Of a DNA stretch of 33,583 bases, positions 81 through 16,776 are shown piece after piece (position 1 is the first letter of the stretch; every line of letters begins with the position of its first letter). The DNA comes from a virus (Duplodnaviria > Caudoviricetes). The translations under genes were made by a program, and so were the position numbers. The DNA lies in IMG/VR virus record IMGVR_UViG_3300021560_000044, positions 1 through 33,583 of that record; one strand, 5' to 3'. The notes below the pieces were generated by a model that did not search any database, had not been told where the DNA came from, and was given only the letters and a program-made list of their open reading frames with translations.

Positions 81-1118
81 TTAGAAGGCTCCGCCGGTGA
101 TGCCGGTGACGCGCATGCCGGAAATCGGCTTGGTGCACACGATGTTGAACGCAACAATCACAACCCCGATGTTTGCTATCTGAAGGTTGGGGATGGCGCT
201 GTACCAACCAGAAAATGCGAACGGTGCATCCTCTGACAAATAGAGCGCGAGATAGCGACTGTTGATCAGATAGGCCGTGCCCTTCGGACACCATGGGTCC
301 ATGAAGATCGGCGTGTCGGCGAGCATCAATCCGCGGAAGCCGGCGTTGACGACCGTGTCGCTGCCGTAGCGCGAGCCGGGTCCGGTGTTGAACTGCTCCA
401 GGCTCATAAAATCGGTCATCAATGTCGTCCAGTCGGAGGGCGACATCACGACAAAGTCGGGCGCCTCGCCGCCACCGCCGATCGAGCCGCCGGTTGGGCC
501 GGTCGTGGTCTGCACGATGTATTTGATGAAGGCGGTGCGGGTGAGAACGCTGCCGGCGCCGGTGATCAGCTGCGCCTGCCAGAACGCGCCGCTGGCGCCG
601 GTGCGCGAAATCGCGCCGTACGTCGACACGTTGGTGCCGTCATCGTAGGCCTGGAACAGGCTGTCGACCTGCGACGGCTGCGCGACGTTGTTGGTGAACG
701 ATGCGGAGCTGATGGCTTGCACCGCCACCGTCTTGGCATCCGCCATGCGCGCCTTGAGCAGCGGGATGACCACCTCGCTCGACTGGATGATGGCTTCCAT
801 GCCCATGAATGGGATGGGGACCACCCCCAGCTTCAAGTTAAATTCGGCGTTCTGGATGGCGGCGACATCGGCCGGCTGCGGGAACGTGCCGGAATAATCC
901 GACCAGCTGAATGAAACGAACGAGCTGTTCTGCACCGGCACGGTGACTTGCGAAACACCACCTCGAGCGCGCTGCGCGTTGCGCATCAACAGCGACAGCA
1001 GCGGCGTCGCCTTGTAGATTTGAACAACCAGGCGCGGAATGAAGGCGCGACGCGTAGCGGCAACTAATTGATTGCCTATCGCTCCACCGGGAACGATGCC
1101 TAGGCCGGTCTGCGGCAT
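81..1118 (-). CDS. Major capsid protein
   Basis: 345 aa, after scaffold and portal. C-terminal pattern PDFVVMS...GFRGLMLADTPIFMDPWCPKGTAYLINSRYL is typical of HK97-fold capsid proteins. SD GAGGGGG. Confidence 0.88.
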   Translation of the reverse strand: MPQTGLGIVPGGAIGNQLVAATRRAFIPRLVVQIYKATPLLSLLMRNAQRARGGVSQVTVPVQNSSFVSFSWSDYSGTFPQPADVAAIQNAEFNLKLGVVPIPFMGMEAIIQSSEVVIPLLKARMADAKTVAVQAISSASFTNNVAQPSQVDSLFQAYDDGTNVSTYGAISRTGASGAFWQAQLITGAGSVLTRTAFIKYIVQTTTGPTGGSIGGGGEAPDFVVMSPSDWTTLMTDFMSLEQFNTGPGSRYGSDTVVNAGFRGLMLADTPIFMDPWCPKGTAYLINSRYLALYLSEDAPFAFSGWYSAIPNLQIANIGVVIVAFNIVCTKPISGMRVTGITGGAF

Positions 1119-1169: not shown

Positions 1170-1691
1170 TTAGCCTTCGCGGAATGCCTTGCGCGCTTCC
1201 CGTTCGGCCCACGCATCCTCGTTCTCGAACAGCAGCTTGGTGTCGGGGTCGTCGCTCGGTTGCCCGAACCCCCAGGTGGTCGGCTGGAAGCCGGATGGCG
1301 TGATGTCGACTGGCGCATTGGTCTTGTCGAACAGCGCCGCCGCCGCCTCCGGGTCGCCGATCTTTCGATCGACCATCAGCTTCTGAATTTTGCTGATGCC
1401 TTCCTCGGTGTAGCCGGCATCCGCCAGGCGACCGAACGCCGCCTTGGTTTCGGCGTCCTGCTCGCGCTTGTCCTGACTGTCCAGGTATTTTTCGAGCCGC
1501 TCCTCCAGCTTGGTCAGGCGCTGCACCTCCGGCGCTTCCGCCAGGCGGTCCTCGTCGGTGGTGATTTCCGGATAGTTGGCTTTCAGCGCACGCTGATAGT
1601 CACGCCGCGATTTCGGATTATTGTTGAGTTTCTCCAGCACGCCGCGCATCTGCTGCAGCTGCTGATATTCGGCCTCCTCAATCTCGCGCAT
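1170..1691 (-). CDS. Capsid scaffolding protein (putative)
   Basis: 173 aa, charged and helical/coiled-coil, directly upstream of MCP. Confidence 0.7.
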   Translation of the reverse strand: MREIEEAEYQQLQQMRGVLEKLNNNPKSRRDYQRALKANYPEITTDEDRLAEAPEVQRLTKLEERLEKYLDSQDKREQDAETKAAFGRLADAGYTEEGISKIQKLMVDRKIGDPEAAAALFDKTNAPVDITPSGFQPTTWGFGQPSDDPDTKLLFENEDAWAEREARKAFREG

Positions 1692-2483: not shown

Positions 2484-4184
2484 CTAACGCTTGCGGCCTT
2501 TGCTGGCGAGCTCAGGATGCTGTTGCAACATCGCTGCCTGCGCGGCCGCACGCGCCTCCGCGTGCTCGATCAAAATATCCTGCTGTGGCGGTCTGGTCAA
2601 CATGATCAGCTCGGCCGGCCCAATGGCACCGGCCTTCGCCAGCATGAACGCCTTGCGTTCCATGTCCTCGGAAAACACCGGCGAGCCCGAGTGGCTGTCC
2701 ACCGCCACCCGGTAGTCGTCGAGCATCTGCGAGAGCATGAACTCCTCTTTCGCCTTTGAGCGATAGACGCCGGCGTCCTTCGCCTGCAGCAGCTTGAAGC
2801 AAAAGTCCGCGTGCGCGGCGCACTGGCGCTCGACCAGCAGCGCGCGGTCGCGGATGCGCGGCGAGCCGGTGCGCAACAGCGTCTGCGCATGCGAGCCCGC
2901 GCGCACGCCAGGCTCACCCTGGCCCATGGTGATGGGCTGAAAGCCACCGGCCTCATCGAACCAGTTCAAGATTTTTTCGATCTGCTGGAACAGCTCCGGC
3001 GGCACCTCTGGCGCCAGGCGCTCGATCTTGGCGTTCGGGGTATCCTCCGAAATCCACCCATCGGGCACGTTGAGCGCCTTGTATTTTTGCTCGTTCAATC
3101 CCTGAAACCCGATGAAGGCTTTTGGCGGCCGCGCCTGCAGTTTGGTGATGCGGCGCACGTCCTCGATCGCGCTGTTGAGCATGTCTTGGAGCGCCACCAG
3201 CGTGATGACCTCGCTCTGTCCCCAGAAATAATTGTCCAGCCGGTTCGGGCATACCTCGGTAAACGGCTGCTCGCCCTCGACCCCGCTGAGATTGCGGTGC
3301 TTGTTCTCGCCCTCCAGGATGATGCCCTCCGCGTCCTTGAGCTTGTCGCCCTCTAAGAGCACGCCCGGGTTCACCATGCGAACGGTGGTCCAGTCCTTGC
3401 GCTTGCTGTCCACCACCCAGAGCTCGTCGACGCGAATGAGCGACGCCGCCAGCTTGGTGTCGATCGCCGGCATCGGCGGCTGCGAGACGATCACCGTGTT
3501 CTTGGACGTTGCCGCGGTGACCTGCTGCACCGGGTTGATGCCGCCGATGATGATCTGCCTCAGCGCATCGCCGGCGATCACCTCCTCCATTTCCTCCTGG
3601 CTGCGACGGTTGGCGCTGGCTTTTATCTTCGCCAGTATCTGCTCCTTATCGTCGCGGTCGACCAGCTGGCGCGCGAGCTCGGTCGGCGTCACGTAGGTGG
3701 TGTAGGTAAACGCCTCCTGCCGATCGAGCCCATCGATGTCCTCGCGCAGCACGCCCATGAACTGCGGATGAATGAGCCAGCTCTCCAGCTCCTCGTTCTG
3801 GCCCCATACCGTCTTGATGAAAGTCTTGGCTTCGATCAGCGCCCAGTGCACGGCATCGGCAAAGTCGAGGTCGCAGCCGCCGCGGTGATAGTCGCGGTTG
3901 AGCACCCGGGAAGCCGCCGCAGCACGTTCGTGATAGGGTTCACCGAGAACGGTATCGTAACTAATCGAAAACCGCACGTCGTCGGCGCTGAACAGAAAGC
4001 TAGCCAGCCGATCGATGTGGGAGAAGATTTTGTTGTAGCGGGCGCCTTCACCAAAGTCGGTGCCGCGCCAGTAGTACGAGCGCCAGGTCCCCAGCTGCGA
4101 AATCCGGTCGGCACGCGATACCTCGCACTGCTCGATGAGCTCAAGCGCCCACGGCGCCAGCGTCTTGTCGCGCGGAACCTTCAC
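2484..4184 (-). CDS. Portal protein (P22/T7-like size class)
   Basis: 566 aa between TerL and scaffold/MCP. PNRLDNYFWGQSEV...LQDMLN pattern and helical C-terminus. Confidence 0.85.
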   Translation of the reverse strand: MKVPRDKTLAPWALELIEQCEVSRADRISQLGTWRSYYWRGTDFGEGARYNKIFSHIDRLASFLFSADDVRFSISYDTVLGEPYHERAAAASRVLNRDYHRGGCDLDFADAVHWALIEAKTFIKTVWGQNEELESWLIHPQFMGVLREDIDGLDRQEAFTYTTYVTPTELARQLVDRDDKEQILAKIKASANRRSQEEMEEVIAGDALRQIIIGGINPVQQVTAATSKNTVIVSQPPMPAIDTKLAASLIRVDELWVVDSKRKDWTTVRMVNPGVLLEGDKLKDAEGIILEGENKHRNLSGVEGEQPFTEVCPNRLDNYFWGQSEVITLVALQDMLNSAIEDVRRITKLQARPPKAFIGFQGLNEQKYKALNVPDGWISEDTPNAKIERLAPEVPPELFQQIEKILNWFDEAGGFQPITMGQGEPGVRAGSHAQTLLRTGSPRIRDRALLVERQCAAHADFCFKLLQAKDAGVYRSKAKEEFMLSQMLDDYRVAVDSHSGSPVFSEDMERKAFMLAKAGAIGPAELIMLTRPPQQDILIEHAEARAAAQAAMLQQHPELASKGRKR

Positions 4185-5032: not shown

Positions 5033-5355
5033 CGCTGGCTGTCCGCAATATCCTGCTCGCTCCACCCACGATAACGCAACGCCACAACCTGCAGCGAACT
5101 GCCTTTGTAATTCGGGTGCATCCAGCGGCGCGCGGCACCCCTGAGATATTTGGTGGCCGTTGCGGGGTGAACACCGAGCAGCTCGCCCAGCCGCCGATGG
5201 CTGCAGCGCTTGGCAAGGCGCCGACATTCGTTCCTCCATATCCGAAACGCCCGCACATTCCGGATTGCCCGCTCATACGCAATCTGTTCCGCGGTCCGCT
5301 GCACGTGCTTTGCAGACGGCACTGACGCGCGTGCTTCGTCGCCTATGCTGCTCAT
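5029..5355 (-). CDS. HTH DNA-binding protein (putative)
   Basis: SHRRLGELLGVHPATATKYL HTH-like segment, ATGA-coupled to the TerL stop. Confidence 0.6.
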   Translation of the reverse strand: MSSIGDEARASVPSAKHVQRTAEQIAYERAIRNVRAFRIWRNECRRLAKRCSHRRLGELLGVHPATATKYLRGAARRWMHPNYKGSSLQVVALRYRGWSEQDIADSQR

Positions 5356-7238
5356 CGCCAGGCCGCGTCCAATCTCGCTTGAACTCGTTCGCTCTCTTTT
5401 ACAGAAAAGAAATCTTGCACCAGCTGATCGACCAGCGTCGCGTTCGGGTTCTGGCTCTGCACCCGTTCCTGCTTCGTCACGTTGTCGTAGGTCGCACCGT
5501 TCGCAATCAGCGACGAGCGCAGCCATTCCAGATAGGCCTTGTTGGCAAGCGCGGTCGCAAACACCCGGTCGTCATGCCCGGTCCCCTCCGCCTCGATCAG
5601 CGACCCATCCTGGATGACGCGCTGCATTTCCTCAAGCAGCGGTATCGACCGAATGCGGAGCGCACGCAACGCGTAAGCGTCGCGCATCTGATTGAGGATG
5701 AGGAGCTTGTTGTCTTGCGTGGTTTTCCAGCCATACGCATAGCCCGCGCCCAAGCTGTCCGGCCGATGATACAGATACCAACGCATATTGCCCAGCACGT
5801 TCTCCAGCTTGCGGTCGGCCGCCGCCTGCTGCAGCTGCCCCTGGTCCATCAGCTCGCGCAAGTGCTTGAGCTCGCGCATCGCCGCCGGCCCGGGACCGTT
5901 CACCTCGATGTTGATCCAGATGTTCTTGTAACACCCGGCCAGGTGCGCCATCACCCACGCCAGCTGATAAGTCTCCGGATTGACGCTGGCATACTCCGCA
6001 ACCTGCACCAAACAATCCGCGTAGCAGCGATATATCTGCACACAGTGATTGTCCTGATAGTCCGCGCGCCCATACGCCGGGTCCACACCCATCACGTAGA
6101 ACCCGTTCGGATGCGGCTCCTCCCACACCCGCAAATCCGCCAGCCCCGAGCGCTGCACGCCCTCCACCGTCGTCGCCAGAAAATTCTCCCCCATGTGATA
6201 CGCGTACGCCTTGAACAATATCTTGTTCTCATGCACCCAGCGGATGTCCTCGTTCAATCGCGAGTTCGGGAAAAAATTCTTGCCGGTCATCACAAACGCC
6301 TGCTCCTCGGTCCACGGATATTCCTGCGCCATCAGATCATCCGCGCTGATCTTCGCCGTGCGCATCCACCGGTGCCACGCCAGCTGCTCGGGCTTGACCG
6401 TCACACCATACTGCTCGCGCACCTCCTTCATCAGCGCCGCCTCGCCGTCGTCCGGCTTGCCGTCCCAGTAATGCTTGTACTCGCGCGACGTTTCCTTGAA
6501 CGCGTAATTCTCATTGCTCCACCAGCCAATGAAAAACGCCTTCTGCGTCAGCGTGTCCTTCTGCGCCTCCTGCCAGATGTCCCAGAACAGATTGTAGCCG
6601 CGCGCCGTGCTCTCAAAAATGTACAGCCGATCCGGATGCTTCTGCGCCAGCGCCGCGATCATCGACGCATAGCCGGCTTCCGACCCCCAGCCCGAGCACT
6701 CGGTCGCATGCACAAAATTCCACGCCCGCGAACGCCCTAATCCGCCTCCCGTTTTCCTTCCACCGGCCACCACATAATCAAGCACCGACCCGTTCTTGAG
6801 CACCAGGTTCGACTTGTTGTGTCGAACAATTCCGCTGCGCATACCCAGCGGCAGGCTTTCAAGGTAGCGCTCAAGCAGGATGCGGAATTTAACTCTGTTC
6901 TCATCGGTGTCGGTAATGAGCGCACCTTGCAGCCCGTCATGCACCAGTATCCAGAACAGGTCGATCGCCAGGCTCACCGTCGATATGCCCAGCTGGCGCG
7001 CCTTCAAACACACGAAATGCCGGACCCCGCGGTCGAGCCCCTCGCACAGCTCGTCCAAAAACCGCGTCTGCGACCCGTACAGTTTGAGCGGCGAAACCCC
7101 GGTCTCCTTGCTGTCAATGGTCAGGTAGCCGATAAATTCAAGGAATAAATTGCGCCAGCGATGCCCGGGCCGGTACGCATGCGCACGCACCCCCGCACGC
7201 CCCCGCGGCCGTAACGAAACCGGCTTAGCGCTCGGCAC
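5352..7238 (-). CDS. terL: Terminase large subunit (start uncertain; ORF open to 7265)
   Basis: Walker A LKARQLGIST, Walker B VHATE, coupling motif ESTA, RNase H-like GVDPA...HDDRVFA. Confidence 0.93.
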   Translation of the reverse strand: MPSAKPVSLRPRGRAGVRAHAYRPGHRWRNLFLEFIGYLTIDSKETGVSPLKLYGSQTRFLDELCEGLDRGVRHFVCLKARQLGISTVSLAIDLFWILVHDGLQGALITDTDENRVKFRILLERYLESLPLGMRSGIVRHNKSNLVLKNGSVLDYVVAGGRKTGGGLGRSRAWNFVHATECSGWGSEAGYASMIAALAQKHPDRLYIFESTARGYNLFWDIWQEAQKDTLTQKAFFIGWWSNENYAFKETSREYKHYWDGKPDDGEAALMKEVREQYGVTVKPEQLAWHRWMRTAKISADDLMAQEYPWTEEQAFVMTGKNFFPNSRLNEDIRWVHENKILFKAYAYHMGENFLATTVEGVQRSGLADLRVWEEPHPNGFYVMGVDPAYGRADYQDNHCVQIYRCYADCLVQVAEYASVNPETYQLAWVMAHLAGCYKNIWINIEVNGPGPAAMRELKHLRELMDQGQLQQAAADRKLENVLGNMRWYLYHRPDSLGAGYAYGWKTTQDNKLLILNQMRDAYALRALRIRSIPLLEEMQRVIQDGSLIEAEGTGHDDRVFATALANKAYLEWLRSSLIANGATYDNVTKQERVQSQNPNATLVDQLVQDFFSVKESERVQARLDAAWR

Positions 7239-7488
7239 GCACCGCCTCGATCGCCTCAAACTCAAACGCCGGCATATCCCAATCGATGTCCAGCCACGGC
7301 GGCCGGCTGTACGACTGCACCTGCAGGCGCGGAGTAAACGCCCGCTTCGTTATCCGAACGAGCTCCGCATAGTCCGGGTTCGCCGGCAGCGGCACCCCGC
7401 GCAATTCCATCAGGCTCGCGCACCGCACAATCGCCGGCGCCGCCAGCACCCCAACCAGGCCAGATAAAAATCCGCGGCGGTCAATCAC
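7225..7488 (-). CDS. Small Tat-signal-like protein containing a copy of the MCP N-terminal segment
   Basis: GTG start, (M)IDRRGFLSGLVGVLAAPAIV. Internal LVRITKRAFTPRLQVQSY matches MCP LVAATRRAFIPRLVVQIY. Confidence 0.75.
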   Translation of the reverse strand: MIDRRGFLSGLVGVLAAPAIVRCASLMELRGVPLPANPDYAELVRITKRAFTPRLQVQSYSRPPWLDIDWDMPAFEFEAIEAVRAER

Positions 7489-7720
7489 GGCGCCACTCGA
7501 TGTAGCCAGGCCTATGCAGCGCGCCCCAGTCAATGCGCGCAATCATTTCCGGCGTGACCTTCATCAGCGGCGGCCCCACATATTCACTCCCGCCCGAAAT
7601 CACCGTCACCGCCGTCACTGCCCCGAGCTCGGGCACCGCGGCGATCGGCGCCTTCGCCGCAACCGGCAGCGCCGGCAATAATCCGAAAAACCTACGCCGG
7701 CTTAATAACTGTCCCACCAT
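7481..7720 (-). CDS. Small Tat-signal-like protein
   Basis: LSRRRFFGLLPALPVAAKA twin-arginine motif plus hydrophobic stretch, SD GAGGGAG. Confidence 0.7.
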   Translation of the reverse strand: MVGQLLSRRRFFGLLPALPVAAKAPIAAVPELGAVTAVTVISGGSEYVGPPLMKVTPEMIARIDWGALHRPGYIEWRRD

Positions 7721-7747
7721 CCACTCCCTCGGCCCGGCTAGGCAGGC

Positions 7748-7981
7748 CTACACATCCGGCCGCATCCGCTTGGTCGCCGCCTTCACCGCCCACATCGCAC
7801 CCTCCTCAATGCACGTGCACGCAAGCGCCTTCAACCGGCTCACCTCGGGAAATCCACCGTCCTGCCCCGGTATGTCGTTGATGCAATCCAGCAGGTCCGC
7901 CGCCCGGCGCTTGATCGCATCAACCTGCCCATCCCCGCTCGGATTGAAATCAATCCCTACCAACCACTCGCCACGCGTCAT
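7748..7981 (-). CDS. Acb2/Tad1-like helical-hairpin protein (putative immune-signal sponge)
   Basis: FNPSG...IKRRAADLLD...RLKALACTCIEEGAMWAVKAAT resembles the A-x-T-x-(I/L)EEA-x-MW hairpin motif. Confidence 0.6.
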   Translation of the reverse strand: MTRGEWLVGIDFNPSGDGQVDAIKRRAADLLDCINDIPGQDGGFPEVSRLKALACTCIEEGAMWAVKAATKRMRPDV

Positions 7982-8433
7982 CGCTTCCTCCGTACCGGCC
8001 GCTTCGACCGCGGCGCCCGATGATGCAGCCCAGGCCGCTCCTCCCCGTCCTCACCCGCACGGTCCGGCAAACCAAAAGGCGCATCCTCCCCGCCCCCCGC
8101 CCGGTCAGCGTCATCCTCCGGAGGAGCCTCCCATGCATCACTCTCACCCTCCGCAATCGCCTCCCCCAGCACAGGGTCCCCACAACTCTCAATCTCAGCC
8201 GCCGTTATCGCCTTCCCAGACGTCAATGCCGCCGGCGCCGGGTCCCCGCAACTCTCCGCCTCATCCGCCGCCGCCCCACCGCCCGATAAATCTGAACCAC
8301 CAGCATCGGCAATAACCGCCGGCGCAGCCTCCGGCGCCTCCAATTCCGCAAGGACATCCAACGCAGGCGCCCAGTTGTTCGCCTCATATCCCTCCCGCAA
8401 TCGCGCCGCTAACTCCGCCCGCGTCCTACCCAT
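7978..8433 (-). CDS. Acidic low-complexity hypothetical protein
   Basis: MGRTRAELAARL..., internal ESCGDP duplication, basic C-tail, SD GAGGT. Confidence 0.6.
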   Translation of the reverse strand: MGRTRAELAARLREGYEANNWAPALDVLAELEAPEAAPAVIADAGGSDLSGGGAAADEAESCGDPAPAALTSGKAITAAEIESCGDPVLGEAIAEGESDAWEAPPEDDADRAGGGEDAPFGLPDRAGEDGEERPGLHHRAPRSKRPVRRKR

Positions 8434-8579
8434 GGCCCACCTCTCACCTGCTCCCTCACATAAATCCGCAGCGTAAACCACAACGCCGCTACCCCCTCCT
8501 CCAACGTCGCACCAGCCAGCGCCGCAACAATCCGCGCAACCAACGCCCGAACCCGCGCATCATCCCCCAATGCCGGCAC
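8409..8579 (-). CDS. Hypothetical protein (56 aa)
   Basis: GTG start with AAGGAGG SD, (M)PALGDDARVRALVARIVAALAG... Confidence 0.55.
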   Translation of the reverse strand: MPALGDDARVRALVARIVAALAGATLEEGVAALWFTLRIYVREQVRGGPWVGRGRS

Positions 8580-8654
8580 CCCTATCCTCCTTGGTCAAGC
8601 CCGGGCGACAAACCCCAGGCAGGCCGCGTGCCTCGTCCTCCAGAGAAAGCACCT

Positions 8655-8684
8655 GCACGCTTCAACAGGCGTAAGGACTGTCAA
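8655..8684 (-). promoter_or_regulatory. Putative late/packaging operon promoter
   Basis: TTGACA on minus strand at 8684-8679, ~100 nt upstream of the first gene. The -10 is poor. Confidence 0.35.
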
Positions 8685-8739
8685 TCCTATAATGCCCATC
8701 GCCATTTCTCAGTGCCCTTCAGAGTGCCGGCACCAGCCC

Positions 8740-8935
8740 CTATCACAAAATTTCCAAAAAAAACGAGAGCAAGGGGGAGACCCGCGATCGATCGCAAAGG
8801 GGACCGATGGGGGGCCTGACCCCTAGGTACCACAACCACCGCGCGCAAACGCAAGCACAAGCGCAGCGGCGAACTAACAGTCGTGTACGCAGACATGCAA
8901 GTTGTGCCTGTGCCACAAGGGTTTCTTGCATGCTA
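8740..8935. other. Putative packaging-initiation/terminus or origin region
   Basis: A-tracts, G-runs, perfect palindrome GCGATCGATCGC (8784-8795), nested inverted repeat CATGCAAG...CTTGCATG (8894-8932). It lies at the strand-skew switch. Confidence 0.4.
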
Positions 8936-9075
8936 CAAATATTTGCTCGCAGCAGAGCATGTCTTTTATGCGGAGACATGGTCATCAGCAGCGAGCGCTA
9001 ACGTCGCACAGCCGCTTGCTTTCACGCCGCAAACACAGCGTCAAATGCAGAGGTCATCGGCGGGGGAGTTTCCCG

Positions 9076-9258
9076 TTACGGCGTATCATCGGAGGTATTG
9101 AGCCAGAGTTCGCGGTCTTGTGGGGATGCTTTAGCGCGCCCGTATTTGTGGAGGAGGACGCGTTCGAGCTGCTGGCGCGGTGAGGCTTTATCGGAGGGTT
9201 TTGGGAGTGAGCGCTTTGTCCATGGGTATTCATCGGACCAGGAACGGTATTCGGCCAT
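9076..9258 (-). CDS. Hypothetical protein (60 aa)
   Basis: MAEYRSWSDEYPW..., preceded by GGAGAGAG. Confidence 0.5.
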   Translation of the reverse strand: MAEYRSWSDEYPWTKRSLPKPSDKASPRQQLERVLLHKYGRAKASPQDRELWLNTSDDTP

Positions 9259-9484
9259 TTTTGCTCTCTCCAATTACGCCTCTTTCCCTCATGAGAGGAA
9301 GGGAAGGAAGCAAGGTTTTGCTAACGCAAAAGAGGCCCTGCGGGGCCAGATGAACCAGCAGGCATCTACGGCTGTACTCAGTGCCGCTTCCGGCCGTTTC
9401 GGGCTTGGGCGTGCCTGAGCGGGGAGGGTCGGTGTTGCAGGGGGTTACCGAGCGGCTGCTTGTGTGAGGTTACGCGCGCGTAGC

Positions 9485-9513
9485 GTTTGCGCCGGGTTGT
9501 TTTTTCGTGTCAA
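9485..9513 (-). promoter_or_regulatory. Putative promoter (-35 TTGACA) heading a ~230-nt non-coding leader
   Basis: TTGACA at 9513-9508 followed by an A-tract spacer. Confidence 0.35.
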
Positions 9514-9610
9514 GCCAGAACGATGGAAGTGCCGATGGCCGTAGTGTGATTTGCGGGGATTGCGGAACGGATTTTGGGATCGTTTCGAAACTATCGGCGC
9601 GCTATACCGC

Positions 9611-9623
9611 TAAGTCATTGATT
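9611..9623 (-). promoter_or_regulatory. IHF-consensus site
   Basis: AATCAATGACTTA is an exact match to WATCAANNNNTTR. Confidence 0.55.
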
Positions 9624-9663
9624 TTGCCGTGGGGAATTTCTGCTCATGGTCAGCAATACTGTC

Positions 9664-9873
9664 CTATCTGCACGACTTGAGGTTGTGCTTGGCGGCGATA
9701 TTGGCGGCGAGAGCGCGCAGCTCGGCCTTTGATGGCTGCGGCTTGCGCTTGCCGGCGGGCGGATTTGAGCCTTGCAGGAGTTGCCAGAGGCTGGTGCCGC
9801 CATCGATACGTTCGCAGCCGTGTGCGCGCATCCTCTTGCGGTTCGTGAATTTTTGCCATCGCAAGGCGGGCAT
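9664..9873 (-). CDS. Hypothetical basic protein
   Basis: 69 aa ending ...PSKAELRALAANIAAKH.... It tiles the operon, although alternative frames exist. Confidence 0.45.
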   Translation of the reverse strand: MPALRWQKFTNRKRMRAHGCERIDGGTSLWQLLQGSNPPAGKRKPQPSKAELRALAANIAAKHNLKSCR

Positions 9874-9880
9874 CTGTGCA

Positions 9881-10096
9881 TCACCATGGCTTTGGGGCGG
9901 GGATTTGCATGGTTTCGTAGGTAGTTATGCGCGATCCGCAGCGGTTGCACCAGCGCCGGCGCCGGATACCGTTTGGTGCGGGTCTGCTATCGATGACGGC
10001 CATGCGACCGCCGCACTGGCATGACCAGGCGCCTTTGCCGAAACGGTACGAGGCGCCTTGCGGACCGGTAATTACGCGTCGAATTTCGCTGCCCAT
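9881..10096 (-). CDS. NrdR-like N-terminal zinc-ribbon protein (start uncertain)
   Basis: CQCGG..VIDSRP..IRRRRWCNRCGSRITTYE matches the NrdR Zn-ribbon/RRRR motif. There is no ATP-cone. Confidence 0.7.
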   Translation of the reverse strand: MGSEIRRVITGPQGASYRFGKGAWSCQCGGRMAVIDSRPAPNGIRRRRWCNRCGSRITTYETMQIPAPKPW

Positions 10097-10320
10097 TTTC
10101 CGCACCATCCGACGGCGGTCATTTGCGGGAAGAAGCTGTGCACGATGGGGACCATGGGGGCTTTTGCGGGATCGGCGACGATGGCGGGGGTTCCCATGCC
10201 GACGACCATGGGGACGGGCGGGTTGTGCCGGCAGAGGCCTATCTGGTTGTTCTGGGTGGTGTCTGCGATCCAGAAGCGGCAGTGGCCGCAGCATTGGTCG
10301 GGGAGGTTGACGGTTTTCAT
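10072..10320 (-). CDS. Small 4-Cys metal-binding protein
   Basis: CGHCRFW...CRHNPP...FP...GWCGKW. Confidence 0.7.
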   Translation of the reverse strand: MKTVNLPDQCCGHCRFWIADTTQNNQIGLCRHNPPVPMVVGMGTPAIVADPAKAPMVPIVHSFFPQMTAVGWCGKWAAKFDA

Positions 10321-15825: not shown

Positions 15826-16776
15826 ATGATCAATCCTAATCGCAAGCGGATCGCACCCGGCACGTTCGCCGCGGTTATCCGCGAGTATCTTGCCACCGAG
15901 CTGTTTAACGGGCTCGCGCCCGCCACCAAGCGCGGCTACCGCATCTACCTCGCCCAAGCCGAGCGGCCAGACTTGCTCGGTGCCTACGATGTCAACATCA
16001 TCACCACCGCGCACGTGCAAGCGTTTCTCGAACGGTATCGCAATCGGCCCGGTGCGATGGGCCAGGCGCTGACCTCGCTCAAGGCCGTGACGAAGTGGGC
16101 GGTGCGGATGGACAAGCTGCCTTACCCGATCACGCTCGGTTGTGTCGTCGCCAAGTCGGACGGCGGTCACCTGGCCTGGCACGATGAGCAGATCGCGATC
16201 GCGATCGAGCATTGTGCGCCGCAAATGGCGCGTTTCGTCGCACTCGCGGCCGGCACCGGTCAGCGCGGCAGCGACCTGGTCAAGATGCAATGGAGTGAGC
16301 TCGTCGAGCGCAACGGTCGCCTTGGTATTCGCGTGCGGCAGCAGAAAACCTTCCGCAAGACGAAACTCGAACTGTGGGTGCCATTTGCACCCGAGCTCGC
16401 GGCGGTCATCCGGACCTGGGAACGGCCAAGCGCGCAGGCGATGCTCGACAATCCAAACCTGCGTTTCATCTTGCTGAAAAAGGACGGCAAGCCCTGGACC
16501 CGCCCGCAGGTTACGTCGTGCTGGTCGCATTTCGAGCGCCACCGGCATCCCGAGCTCGCGAGCCTCAACCTGCACGGACTGCGCGGACATCTGGTCGTGC
16601 GGTTGCGCAATGCGGGTGCGACCGATGGCCAGATCGCGAAATGCGTCGGCATGACCGTCCCTATGGTTACCCGCTATTGCCGGTCCGCCGATCAGCAGGC
16701 CGAGGCCGAGGGCGCGATCGCCTGCCTCGACGACGCGCGGGCGGCGCGGTCTCACGTGAAACGGGAGGCCGTGTGA
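15826..16776 (+). CDS. int: Tyrosine recombinase/integrase
   Basis: Catalytic R (GQRGSD), K (QQKT), HGLR, Y (VTRYC); SD GGGGAGG. Confidence 0.92.
   Translation: MINPNRKRIAPGTFAAVIREYLATELFNGLAPATKRGYRIYLAQAERPDLLGAYDVNIITTAHVQAFLERYRNRPGAMGQALTSLKAVTKWAVRMDKLPYPITLGCVVAKSDGGHLAWHDEQIAIAIEHCAPQMARFVALAAGTGQRGSDLVKMQWSELVERNGRLGIRVRQQKTFRKTKLELWVPFAPELAAVIRTWERPSAQAMLDNPNLRFILLKKDGKPWTRPQVTSCWSHFERHRHPELASLNLHGLRGHLVVRLRNAGATDGQIAKCVGMTVPMVTRYCRSADQQAEAEGAIACLDDARAARSHVKREAV

Follow-up and report, generated by a model that had tools for sequence, protein, structure and literature searches.

What does a phage gain from a gene that joins an export-type leader to a short copy of its own capsid protein? 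The question is raised by an 87-residue open reading frame (ORF), which we call the mimic gene, in a stretch of 33,583 nucleotides that we call the window: positions 1 to 33,583 of the IMG/VR virus record IMGVR_UViG_3300021560_000044 (Duplodnaviria; Caudoviricetes), a linear contig that is 84% complete (features in Table 1). We find that the mimic protein belongs to a family in which a leader resembling a twin-arginine translocation (Tat) signal is followed by a piece of a virion protein. This leader-plus-virion-piece family appears to be real and selected, and its architecture is apparently undescribed; no description was found in the literature, as judged from titles and the starts of abstracts, with subscription papers outside the scope. 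As to function, the reading that we favor, at a rough probability of 0.38, is that the mimic would be a decoy that binds host recognizers of the capsid, which would then be removed via the host Tat system.

The copied segment can be seen directly by translation. On the minus strand, 7362-7309 and 1067-1014 encode segments that are identical at 12 of 18 residues without gaps, or at 14 of 24 when extended, which reproduces the figures of a preliminary description of this DNA. When the mimic ORF is shuffled, it reaches at most 10/18 against the whole six-frame translation of the window (200 shuffles) and at most 9/18 against the capsid protein (2,000 shuffles), and a BLASTP search of the mimic against the six-frame window gives E=7.4e-4. 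The same description held that shared residues often use different codons, and so they do, in 6 of the 12 cases, with a DNA identity of 31/54. It was also correct in naming the major capsid protein as the partner: the 345-residue ORF scores over the NF033394 cut-off (E=6e-29), and its structural model aligns with HK97-fold structures (best Z 18.1, root-mean-square deviation 4.5, 256 residues aligned to 7f38_A). The model has a mean predicted local distance difference test score (pLDDT) of 64 and is unreliable in the region of the N-terminal arm (N-arm), which lies below 50; it is because the aligned HK97 core begins near residue 33-37 that we place the copied residues 18-35 in the N-arm, by position. 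The residues singled out for this segment in Table 1 are invariant across 29 capsid homologs, and the mimic retains the invariant basic T-R-x-A-F-x-P-R motif of the arm. The putative scaffold, for its part, carries a conserved acidic motif at its C-terminus. The N-arm is the only part copied, as the mimic protein has no NF033394 match and no full HK97 fold. Nor does it belong to any family in Pfam, PHROGs or NCBIfam; a PspM identity was considered and rejected as noise (16 bits vs. a cut-off of 80).

How large is the family? A profile built from four relatives and searched against 1.84 billion cluster representatives finds 2,081 clusters at E<=0.001, and 62 at 1e-10. The preliminary description had left to such a search whether homologs keep the segment, and they do: 128 of the best 150 clusters match the capsid N-arm profile, while reversed controls give 0. 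The motif is thus retained in 128 separate clusters at 50% identity, whose linkers share nothing. Because the best-150 set is biased by the query, we made two IMG/VR scans with the leader only, each listing 120 matches (of about 170 and about 290 estimated); counts of tails below are among the matches listed. In the scan that did not require the arginines, no listed member extends more than 150 residues beyond the leader motif. Other searches returned little. Word-based searches found one relative and, separately, one near-identical locus plus three leader-only matches; a metagenome scan added one copy of the window contig and one weak locus; and tblastn against 50,697 GenBank phages, where leaders may be masked by the low-complexity filter, yielded the capsid genes of two uncultured records and noise at E=7, with no member of the family. 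In the ESM Atlas the neighbors include two clusters without a name (0.93 and 0.91), of which the former is 100% viral.

The tails reveal where the pieces come from. Matches to long ORFs of the fetched loci (E<=0.01) are found for 34 of 148 tail clusters, compared to 1 for reversed and 1 and 0 for shuffled controls; a first tail set gave 22 of 86 assigned vs. 0 in four controls. The 34 assigned clusters comprise 31 capsid pieces, one P22-type portal and two tail collar pieces, and five types of capsid are copied (NF033394/phrog_9953, P22 coat PF11651, GP7 PF20911, Gp23/phrog_138 and phrog_1357); since the database is rich in relatives of the window capsid, the shares by target should not be taken as frequencies. 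Among the 31 capsid pieces, 22 stem from the N-arm, and these represent four capsid types. Matches occur in the frame of the leader in 22 of 102 tails, and the four off-frame hits shadow capsid matches from that set, which points to descent by copying. In 19 of 149 representatives the N-arm is joined by a second capsid region, often out of order, where some of these apparent mosaics are an N-arm piece matching a similar internal stretch. PHROGs, which is less sensitive for tails than BLAST against the fetched long ORFs, gives five hits at E<=0.002 for 102 isolated tails, all to capsid or tail families.

A few groups of tails deserve mention on their own. In one locus (L060, 1943-2302) the leader gene is flanked by those for scaffold and coat and copies the N-terminal 57 residues of the downstream coat, likely a snapshot of how pieces get captured. 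Nine others (L179, L190, L200, L205, L207, L215, L217, L223, L226) form a subfamily that shares the leader and has a conserved tail of its own; it is found on long alphaproteobacterial contigs including Bradyrhizobium erythrophlei, near 10001 (near 3204 in L200); by eye, there is no capsid motif in these tails. The tails of L068, L102, L170, L255, L279, L286, L290 and L332 show by eye what we take to be a likeness to portal, terminase or tail-domain motifs, which does not pass the BLAST threshold for those targets.

Is the copied capsid the phage's own? In all 24 records in which both could be seen, the family of the copied piece is that of the phage's own capsid or portal, a count in which the family searches varied by record and related phages are not independent. 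Ten of these are of NF033394 type (the window, L006, L067, L105, L134, L136, L169, L258, L297 and L325, two of them below the family cut-off), eight of P22 type (L059, L060, L069, L160, L256, L308, L339, L346), four of GP7 type (L068, L082, L176, L294), one of phrog_1357 (L315) and one portal (L115). Three records were left out of the count: the tails of L079 and L084 resemble their own P22-type coat weakly (scores 50 and 60), and that of L126 shows no resemblance (22). No own source gene was seen for another 11 assigned tails, in records that are fragmentary or were not searched for that family, and L074, L111, L126 and L270 have a capsid gene and a tail without assignment.

Covariation of the mimic with the N-terminus of its own capsid, as the preliminary description envisaged, therefore stands at the level of the capsid family and is not supported at the level of the strain. 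The window mimic ranks its own capsid only 25th of 41, and strain-level covariation was not found for six TRRAF-type mimics, whose own capsids rank 15-34 of 41 in a pool biased to the relatives of the window. P22-type tails rank their own coat 1st to 3rd of 12. Mimics resemble one another (median 15/20) more than they resemble any capsid in the sample (13/20). Position 24 is R in 120 of 120 capsids vs. 56 of 120 mimics, and position 31 is V in 120 of 120 capsids and F, Y or H in 88 of 120 mimics, where the capsid sample is the near clade of the window. A tree of 30 columns sets most mimics apart from capsids and, weakly, does not group the window mimic with its own capsid; with 3 label changes vs. 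22.6 for shuffled labels, it is too weak to settle origins. As a separate case, L023 has at 3237-3545 an RR-leader ORF of another type with a GP7-type capsid piece (E=0.001), in a record (34% complete) with an NF033394-type capsid and no GP7 gene; it is possible that this ORF is a non-self bait.

The variation in these tails is that of a coding sequence under selection. Between the window protein and its relative P0002, 21 of 24 leader, 5 of 18 linker, 11 of 18 mimic and 22 of 27 C-terminal residues are shared. Two soil contigs, each a single contig of low depth that may contain errors, show the mimic changing: X4 (depth 2.6) keeps both flanks and has the middle 116 letters replaced by 119 others, and X3 (depth 3.2), which covers the mimic gene, has its listed changes clustered in the mimic, with five residue-changing and three silent codons in codons 43-60 (22 of 31 differences listed), codons 58-60 being uncertain due to a compensating indel pair. 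Comparing tails to their own source genes, for 17 of 18 pairs pooled (619 codons), we obtain a nonsynonymous rate (dN) of 0.48 and a synonymous rate (dS) of 1.54, with four-fold sites alike in 66 of 173 and a residue identity of 49%; selecting these pairs for similar proteins pushes dN down. Among related tails, ten independent pairs have a pooled dN/dS of 0.29 (0.09-0.54, one saturated), the five closest being one subfamily with an unassigned tail. A subfamily with a long unassigned tail (L071, L090, L098, L112, L122, L139, L155, L157, L163, L164, L168, L171) shows clear purifying selection, with dN/dS of 0.09-0.23. The window tail compared to L006 is weakly constrained (proportions of synonymous and nonsynonymous differences, pS 0.49 and pN 0.38). 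The expectation of a dN/dS away from 1 is borne out for the related tails, and much less so for the window tail; from these sequence comparisons, the family is protein-coding and under selection, and the window tail appears to change fast.

The leader is the constant part. RR-x-F-L is the Tat consensus, and the mimic protein starts, as had been described, with D3-R-R-G-F-L; 16 uncharged residues follow from G6 (mean hydropathy 2.07). In the scan without the arginine requirement, an upstream RR is present in 114 of the 116 distinct members listed and RR-x-F/L in 111, and a TatFind-like rule is passed by 133 of the best 150 representatives of the profile search. The cut-site region reads V-R-A in the family and V-R-C-A in the window protein, where the strict A-x-A motif is not matched; a signal-peptidase cut is predicted as likely near residues 23-24, and a conserved S-L-M-P-V stretch comes after it in the family. 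Family models are less clear: the window protein has no PF10518 or NCBIfam Tat-signal match, relatives match PF10518 weakly (E 0.0005-0.1, 13-20.5 bits vs. a cut-off of 22.7), and the Tat-signal clusters among the ESM Atlas neighbors, at 0.82-0.88, are leads only. Taking the tripartite layout of Tat signals from PMC6708511, the leader resembles a Tat signal by its motif, hydrophobic (h) region and conservation, and export is predicted. None of the 148 tails has a transmembrane-like window, so the cut product would be soluble, and the membrane tether proposed in the preliminary description is unlikely unless the leader remains uncleaved. Anchoring as a lipoprotein was considered and rejected, since a lipobox is absent and only 2 of 148 representatives have a cysteine at the position in question.

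A tatA gene over the cut-off occurs in one of 50 family records, directly upstream of the leader gene, and we found none in the mimic phage's own record. The record in question (L371, G036; 1489-1680) is a complete 62-kb phage with three leader genes, two of which carry pieces of its own P22-type coat. The conservation of RR and the phage tatA beside one member argue for a Tat-like constraint on the leader.

The gene is found in some phages and not in their relatives. Leader and motif are retained in P0002 and, in L005 and L006, in the ORF just before terL; L007, with 84% terL identity, has no mimic-type ORF in the 528 bases before terL. In 49 records chosen by capsid similarity, the mimic profile matches the capsid N-arm in all 49, and the leader gene is present in three, and in none of the eight records that are at least 90% complete. 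From this distribution, the mimic gene is accessory, not structural.

Table 1. Features of the window that bear on the mimic gene.
Feature	Coordinates	Strand	Remarks
Major capsid protein, 345 aa, NF033394 / phrog_9953, HK97 fold	81..1118	-	
Source segment, capsid residues 18-35 (N-arm), with invariant T22, R23, R24, A25, P28	1014..1067	-	
Probable scaffolding protein	1170..1691	-	label inferred from position and conservation; no family hit
Terminase large subunit (terL)	5352..7238	-	probable GTG start at 7238 behind GAGG
Mimic gene (leader plus capsid fragment), 87 aa	7225..7488	-	GTG start overlaps stop of upstream ORF; 3′ end overlaps terL start
Capsid N-arm copy in mimic protein, residues 43-66 (core 43-60)	7291..7362	-	
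Twin-arginine-type leader, residues 1-24: RRGFL, 16 uncharged residues, AAPAIVR	7417..7488	-	
Second small ORF, 79 aa, RR-x-F-F leader of another type	7481..7720	-	
Acb2/Tad1-like sponge protein	7748..7981	-	PF24729 E=5.5e-13, over cut-off
Acidic ORF, 167 aa, basic C-terminus	7978..8481	-	no family hit
Integrase	15826..16776	+	phrog_1 E=3.8e-29

On the minus strand, the order is the 167-residue acidic ORF, the Acb2/Tad1-like gene, the 79-residue ORF, the mimic gene and terL. The start of the mimic gene sits within the stop region of the 79-residue ORF, and its last codons contain GAGG and the likely terL start, an arrangement that makes translational coupling of the mimic gene to the packaging genes likely. 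The phage has an integrase and is therefore probably temperate. The Acb2/Tad1-like gene, two genes upstream of the mimic gene here, is directly upstream in L006 and is not between the acidic ORF and terL in L007. The acidic ORF itself, conserved upstream of terL in both L006 and L007, may be a small terminase or a chaperone. The tail of the 79-residue ORF copies a beta-strand repeat of virion proteins in related phages (E=5.6e-4 to L044), with no second copy of the repeat elsewhere in the phage's own incomplete record; in a related soil contig, 7480 is followed directly by 7711, so that most of this ORF is missing. Around 60 family loci, the nearest ORFs of at least 150 residues are terminases in 15 cases, other virion genes in eight and DNA-metabolism genes in 17, the rest having no telling hit, a count made with a rough gene caller and without background. 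The two sequencing runs that contain most of the stretch are soil metagenomes, of which one may be where it came from, and no RNA dataset is among those listed as containing it. Alphaproteobacterial names are found on 29 of 49 GTDB records matching the leader pattern, many of which are bins.

How would a decoy work? The mimic would be made just ahead of the head genes through translational coupling, and host TatBC would recognize its twin-arginine-type leader. The N-arm copy would bind a host sensor of new capsid subunits; the bound sensor would be held at the membrane or carried out of the cytoplasm by hitchhiker export, and the phage would gain from its removal. That Tat can transport bound partners without a signal of their own has been described (PMC4273604). 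We consider a bait to be the simplest reading because the copy is short, self-derived, fast-changing and accessory, and stands behind an invariant export-type leader. A host sensor is the partner that we favor given the accessory pattern, the coupling to late genes, the sponge gene as a neighbor, the precedent of DSAD1 and the classes that are copied. These classes (capsid, portal and tail proteins) are known immune triggers: STAND families sense all three, Lit and CapRel sense capsid via short motifs (10.64898/2026.01.04.697583), and Thoeris is reported to sense capsids (PMC12578639).

Several points weigh against the decoy. Most tail clusters, 114 of 148, are without assignment, and two RR-leader ORFs of another type carry pieces that are not found in their own incomplete records. 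We know of no sensor for the capsid N-arm, which is an assembly interface and the main source of the assigned pieces, nor of one for the NF033394 capsid family. Acb2/Tad1 is present in only 9 of 50 family records, four of which have it at most about 4 kb from the leader gene (no background rate), and in 17 of the 60 loci the nearest large annotated neighbor is a DNA-metabolism gene and not a head gene. Tat may reject unstructured cargo (PMC6708511). Avs7, Avs8 and Avs10 are reported to bind the folded A-domain surface of the capsid and not a short piece of the N-arm, and since short capsid motifs activate Lit and CapRel, a fragment might trigger a sensor rather than block it (10.64898/2026.01.04.697583).

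The alternative that survives best, which we regard as possible if somewhat unlikely, has the N-arm copy bind scaffold or capsid in trans, so that the Tat leader drags the partner to or across the membrane; a prophage or a co-infecting phage would thereby block others that share its capsid family, or the phage would tune its own head assembly. In P22, the coat N-arm is the scaffold-binding site (PMC9965877), and the preponderance of N-arms among the copied capsid pieces, across four capsid types, is what such interference would favor. So are the pairing of a basic motif in the mimic with a conserved acidic end on the putative scaffold, a match that is family-wide rather than strain-specific, the integrase, and the tails that are mosaics of several capsid pieces. 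Yet the mimic gene overlaps the start of terL on the late strand, so that it would be made in the phage's own lytic cycle and its own heads would be hit; no sigma-70-like promoter was found in 6800-10200 (a weak test); and almost all assigned pieces are self, not foreign. The absence of the gene from all eight of the complete relatives rules out an essential role in assembly.

Quite unlikely, in our view, is that the exported and cut peptide acts in the periplasm or outside the cell, for example as an identity signal for the capsid family that passes between infected cells or as a decoy for an envelope sensor or protease. Such a role would suit a leader that is tripartite like a cleavable Tat signal, with its conserved stretch after the likely cut, tails free of transmembrane-like windows, and a phage tatA beside one family member. 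But no recurring receptor-like neighbor is seen among the large flanking genes, and the tails differ in length and source. Moreover, capsid N-arms face the interior of the capsid, and we know of no periplasmic partner for them.

We are more doubtful still that the leader is the working part, occupying or jamming TatBC and altering the envelope, with the tail a passenger from nearby strongly expressed genes. A nearly invariant leader in front of mostly unassigned tails fits such a passenger, as do the alphaproteobacterial chromosomal subfamily, which has this leader and tails without a capsid motif visible by eye, and the weak constraint on the window tail compared to L006. It is at odds with tail matches that are in the leader's frame only, with an N-arm motif kept across so many separate clusters whose linkers have nothing in common, and with the pooled dN/dS of related tails. 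Lastly, that the family is non-functional debris of partial gene duplications, as its patchiness and the nucleotide-level capsid homology visible as off-frame shadows in some members might suggest, is already largely refuted by thousands of clusters with intact short frames, by four-fold sites that are saturated beside 49% residue identity to the own gene, and by frame-preserving changes in relatives.

Whichever function holds, we could not assign to any described family an architecture in which an export-type leader precedes fragments of virion proteins from the phage itself, and which recurs in thousands of clusters and with at least five unrelated types of capsid. If the decoy is true, it would be a general counter to the sensing of virion proteins, and the tails would point to sensed epitopes, including the N-arm. 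A stronger form, which we think unlikely, is that of a modular bait cassette kept by many uncultured phages, in which an invariant Tat leader would repeatedly capture in-frame pieces of the phage's own capsid, portal or tail proteins, with shuffling and swapping of the pieces, and export their sensors via Tat; the tails, in their thousands, would then chart the epitopes watched by bacterial immunity. If instead the block of assembly is true, the family would amount to a naturally occurring collection of peptides that inhibit capsid assembly.

Compared to known systems, the leader shares with Tat signal peptides (PF10518) the RR-x-F-L motif, the uncharged h-region and small residues before the likely cut; it differs in scoring below their cut-off, and in that its passenger is a capsid fragment of 40-120 residues and not a folded cofactor enzyme. 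The mimic tail is homologous to the N-arm of HK97-fold capsids (NF033394), with only about 25 residues copied; in the P22 coat (PF11651), this arm binds scaffold and refolds on maturation (PMC9965877). SaPI CpmA and CpmB, which redirect helper assembly (PMC5644958), are likewise small proteins that act on the head assembly of a related phage, but they act on the capsid of another element and without a Tat-type leader, while the mimic piece comes from the phage's own capsid family. The Acb2/Tad1 sponges (PF24729), of which one is encoded nearby, are also small genes and are anti-defense; they bind nucleotide signals (10.1101/2025.08.24.671296) and have no similarity to the mimic protein. In DSAD1 of SPbeta, compared by description, a phage accessory protein also imitates a virion-protein trigger to block a sensor, by occupying the tail-tube pocket of DSR2 (PMC10973363). 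DSAD1 is described as a structural mimic, whereas here we see a sequence copy of the phage's own gene, behind an export-type leader, and with many different pieces.

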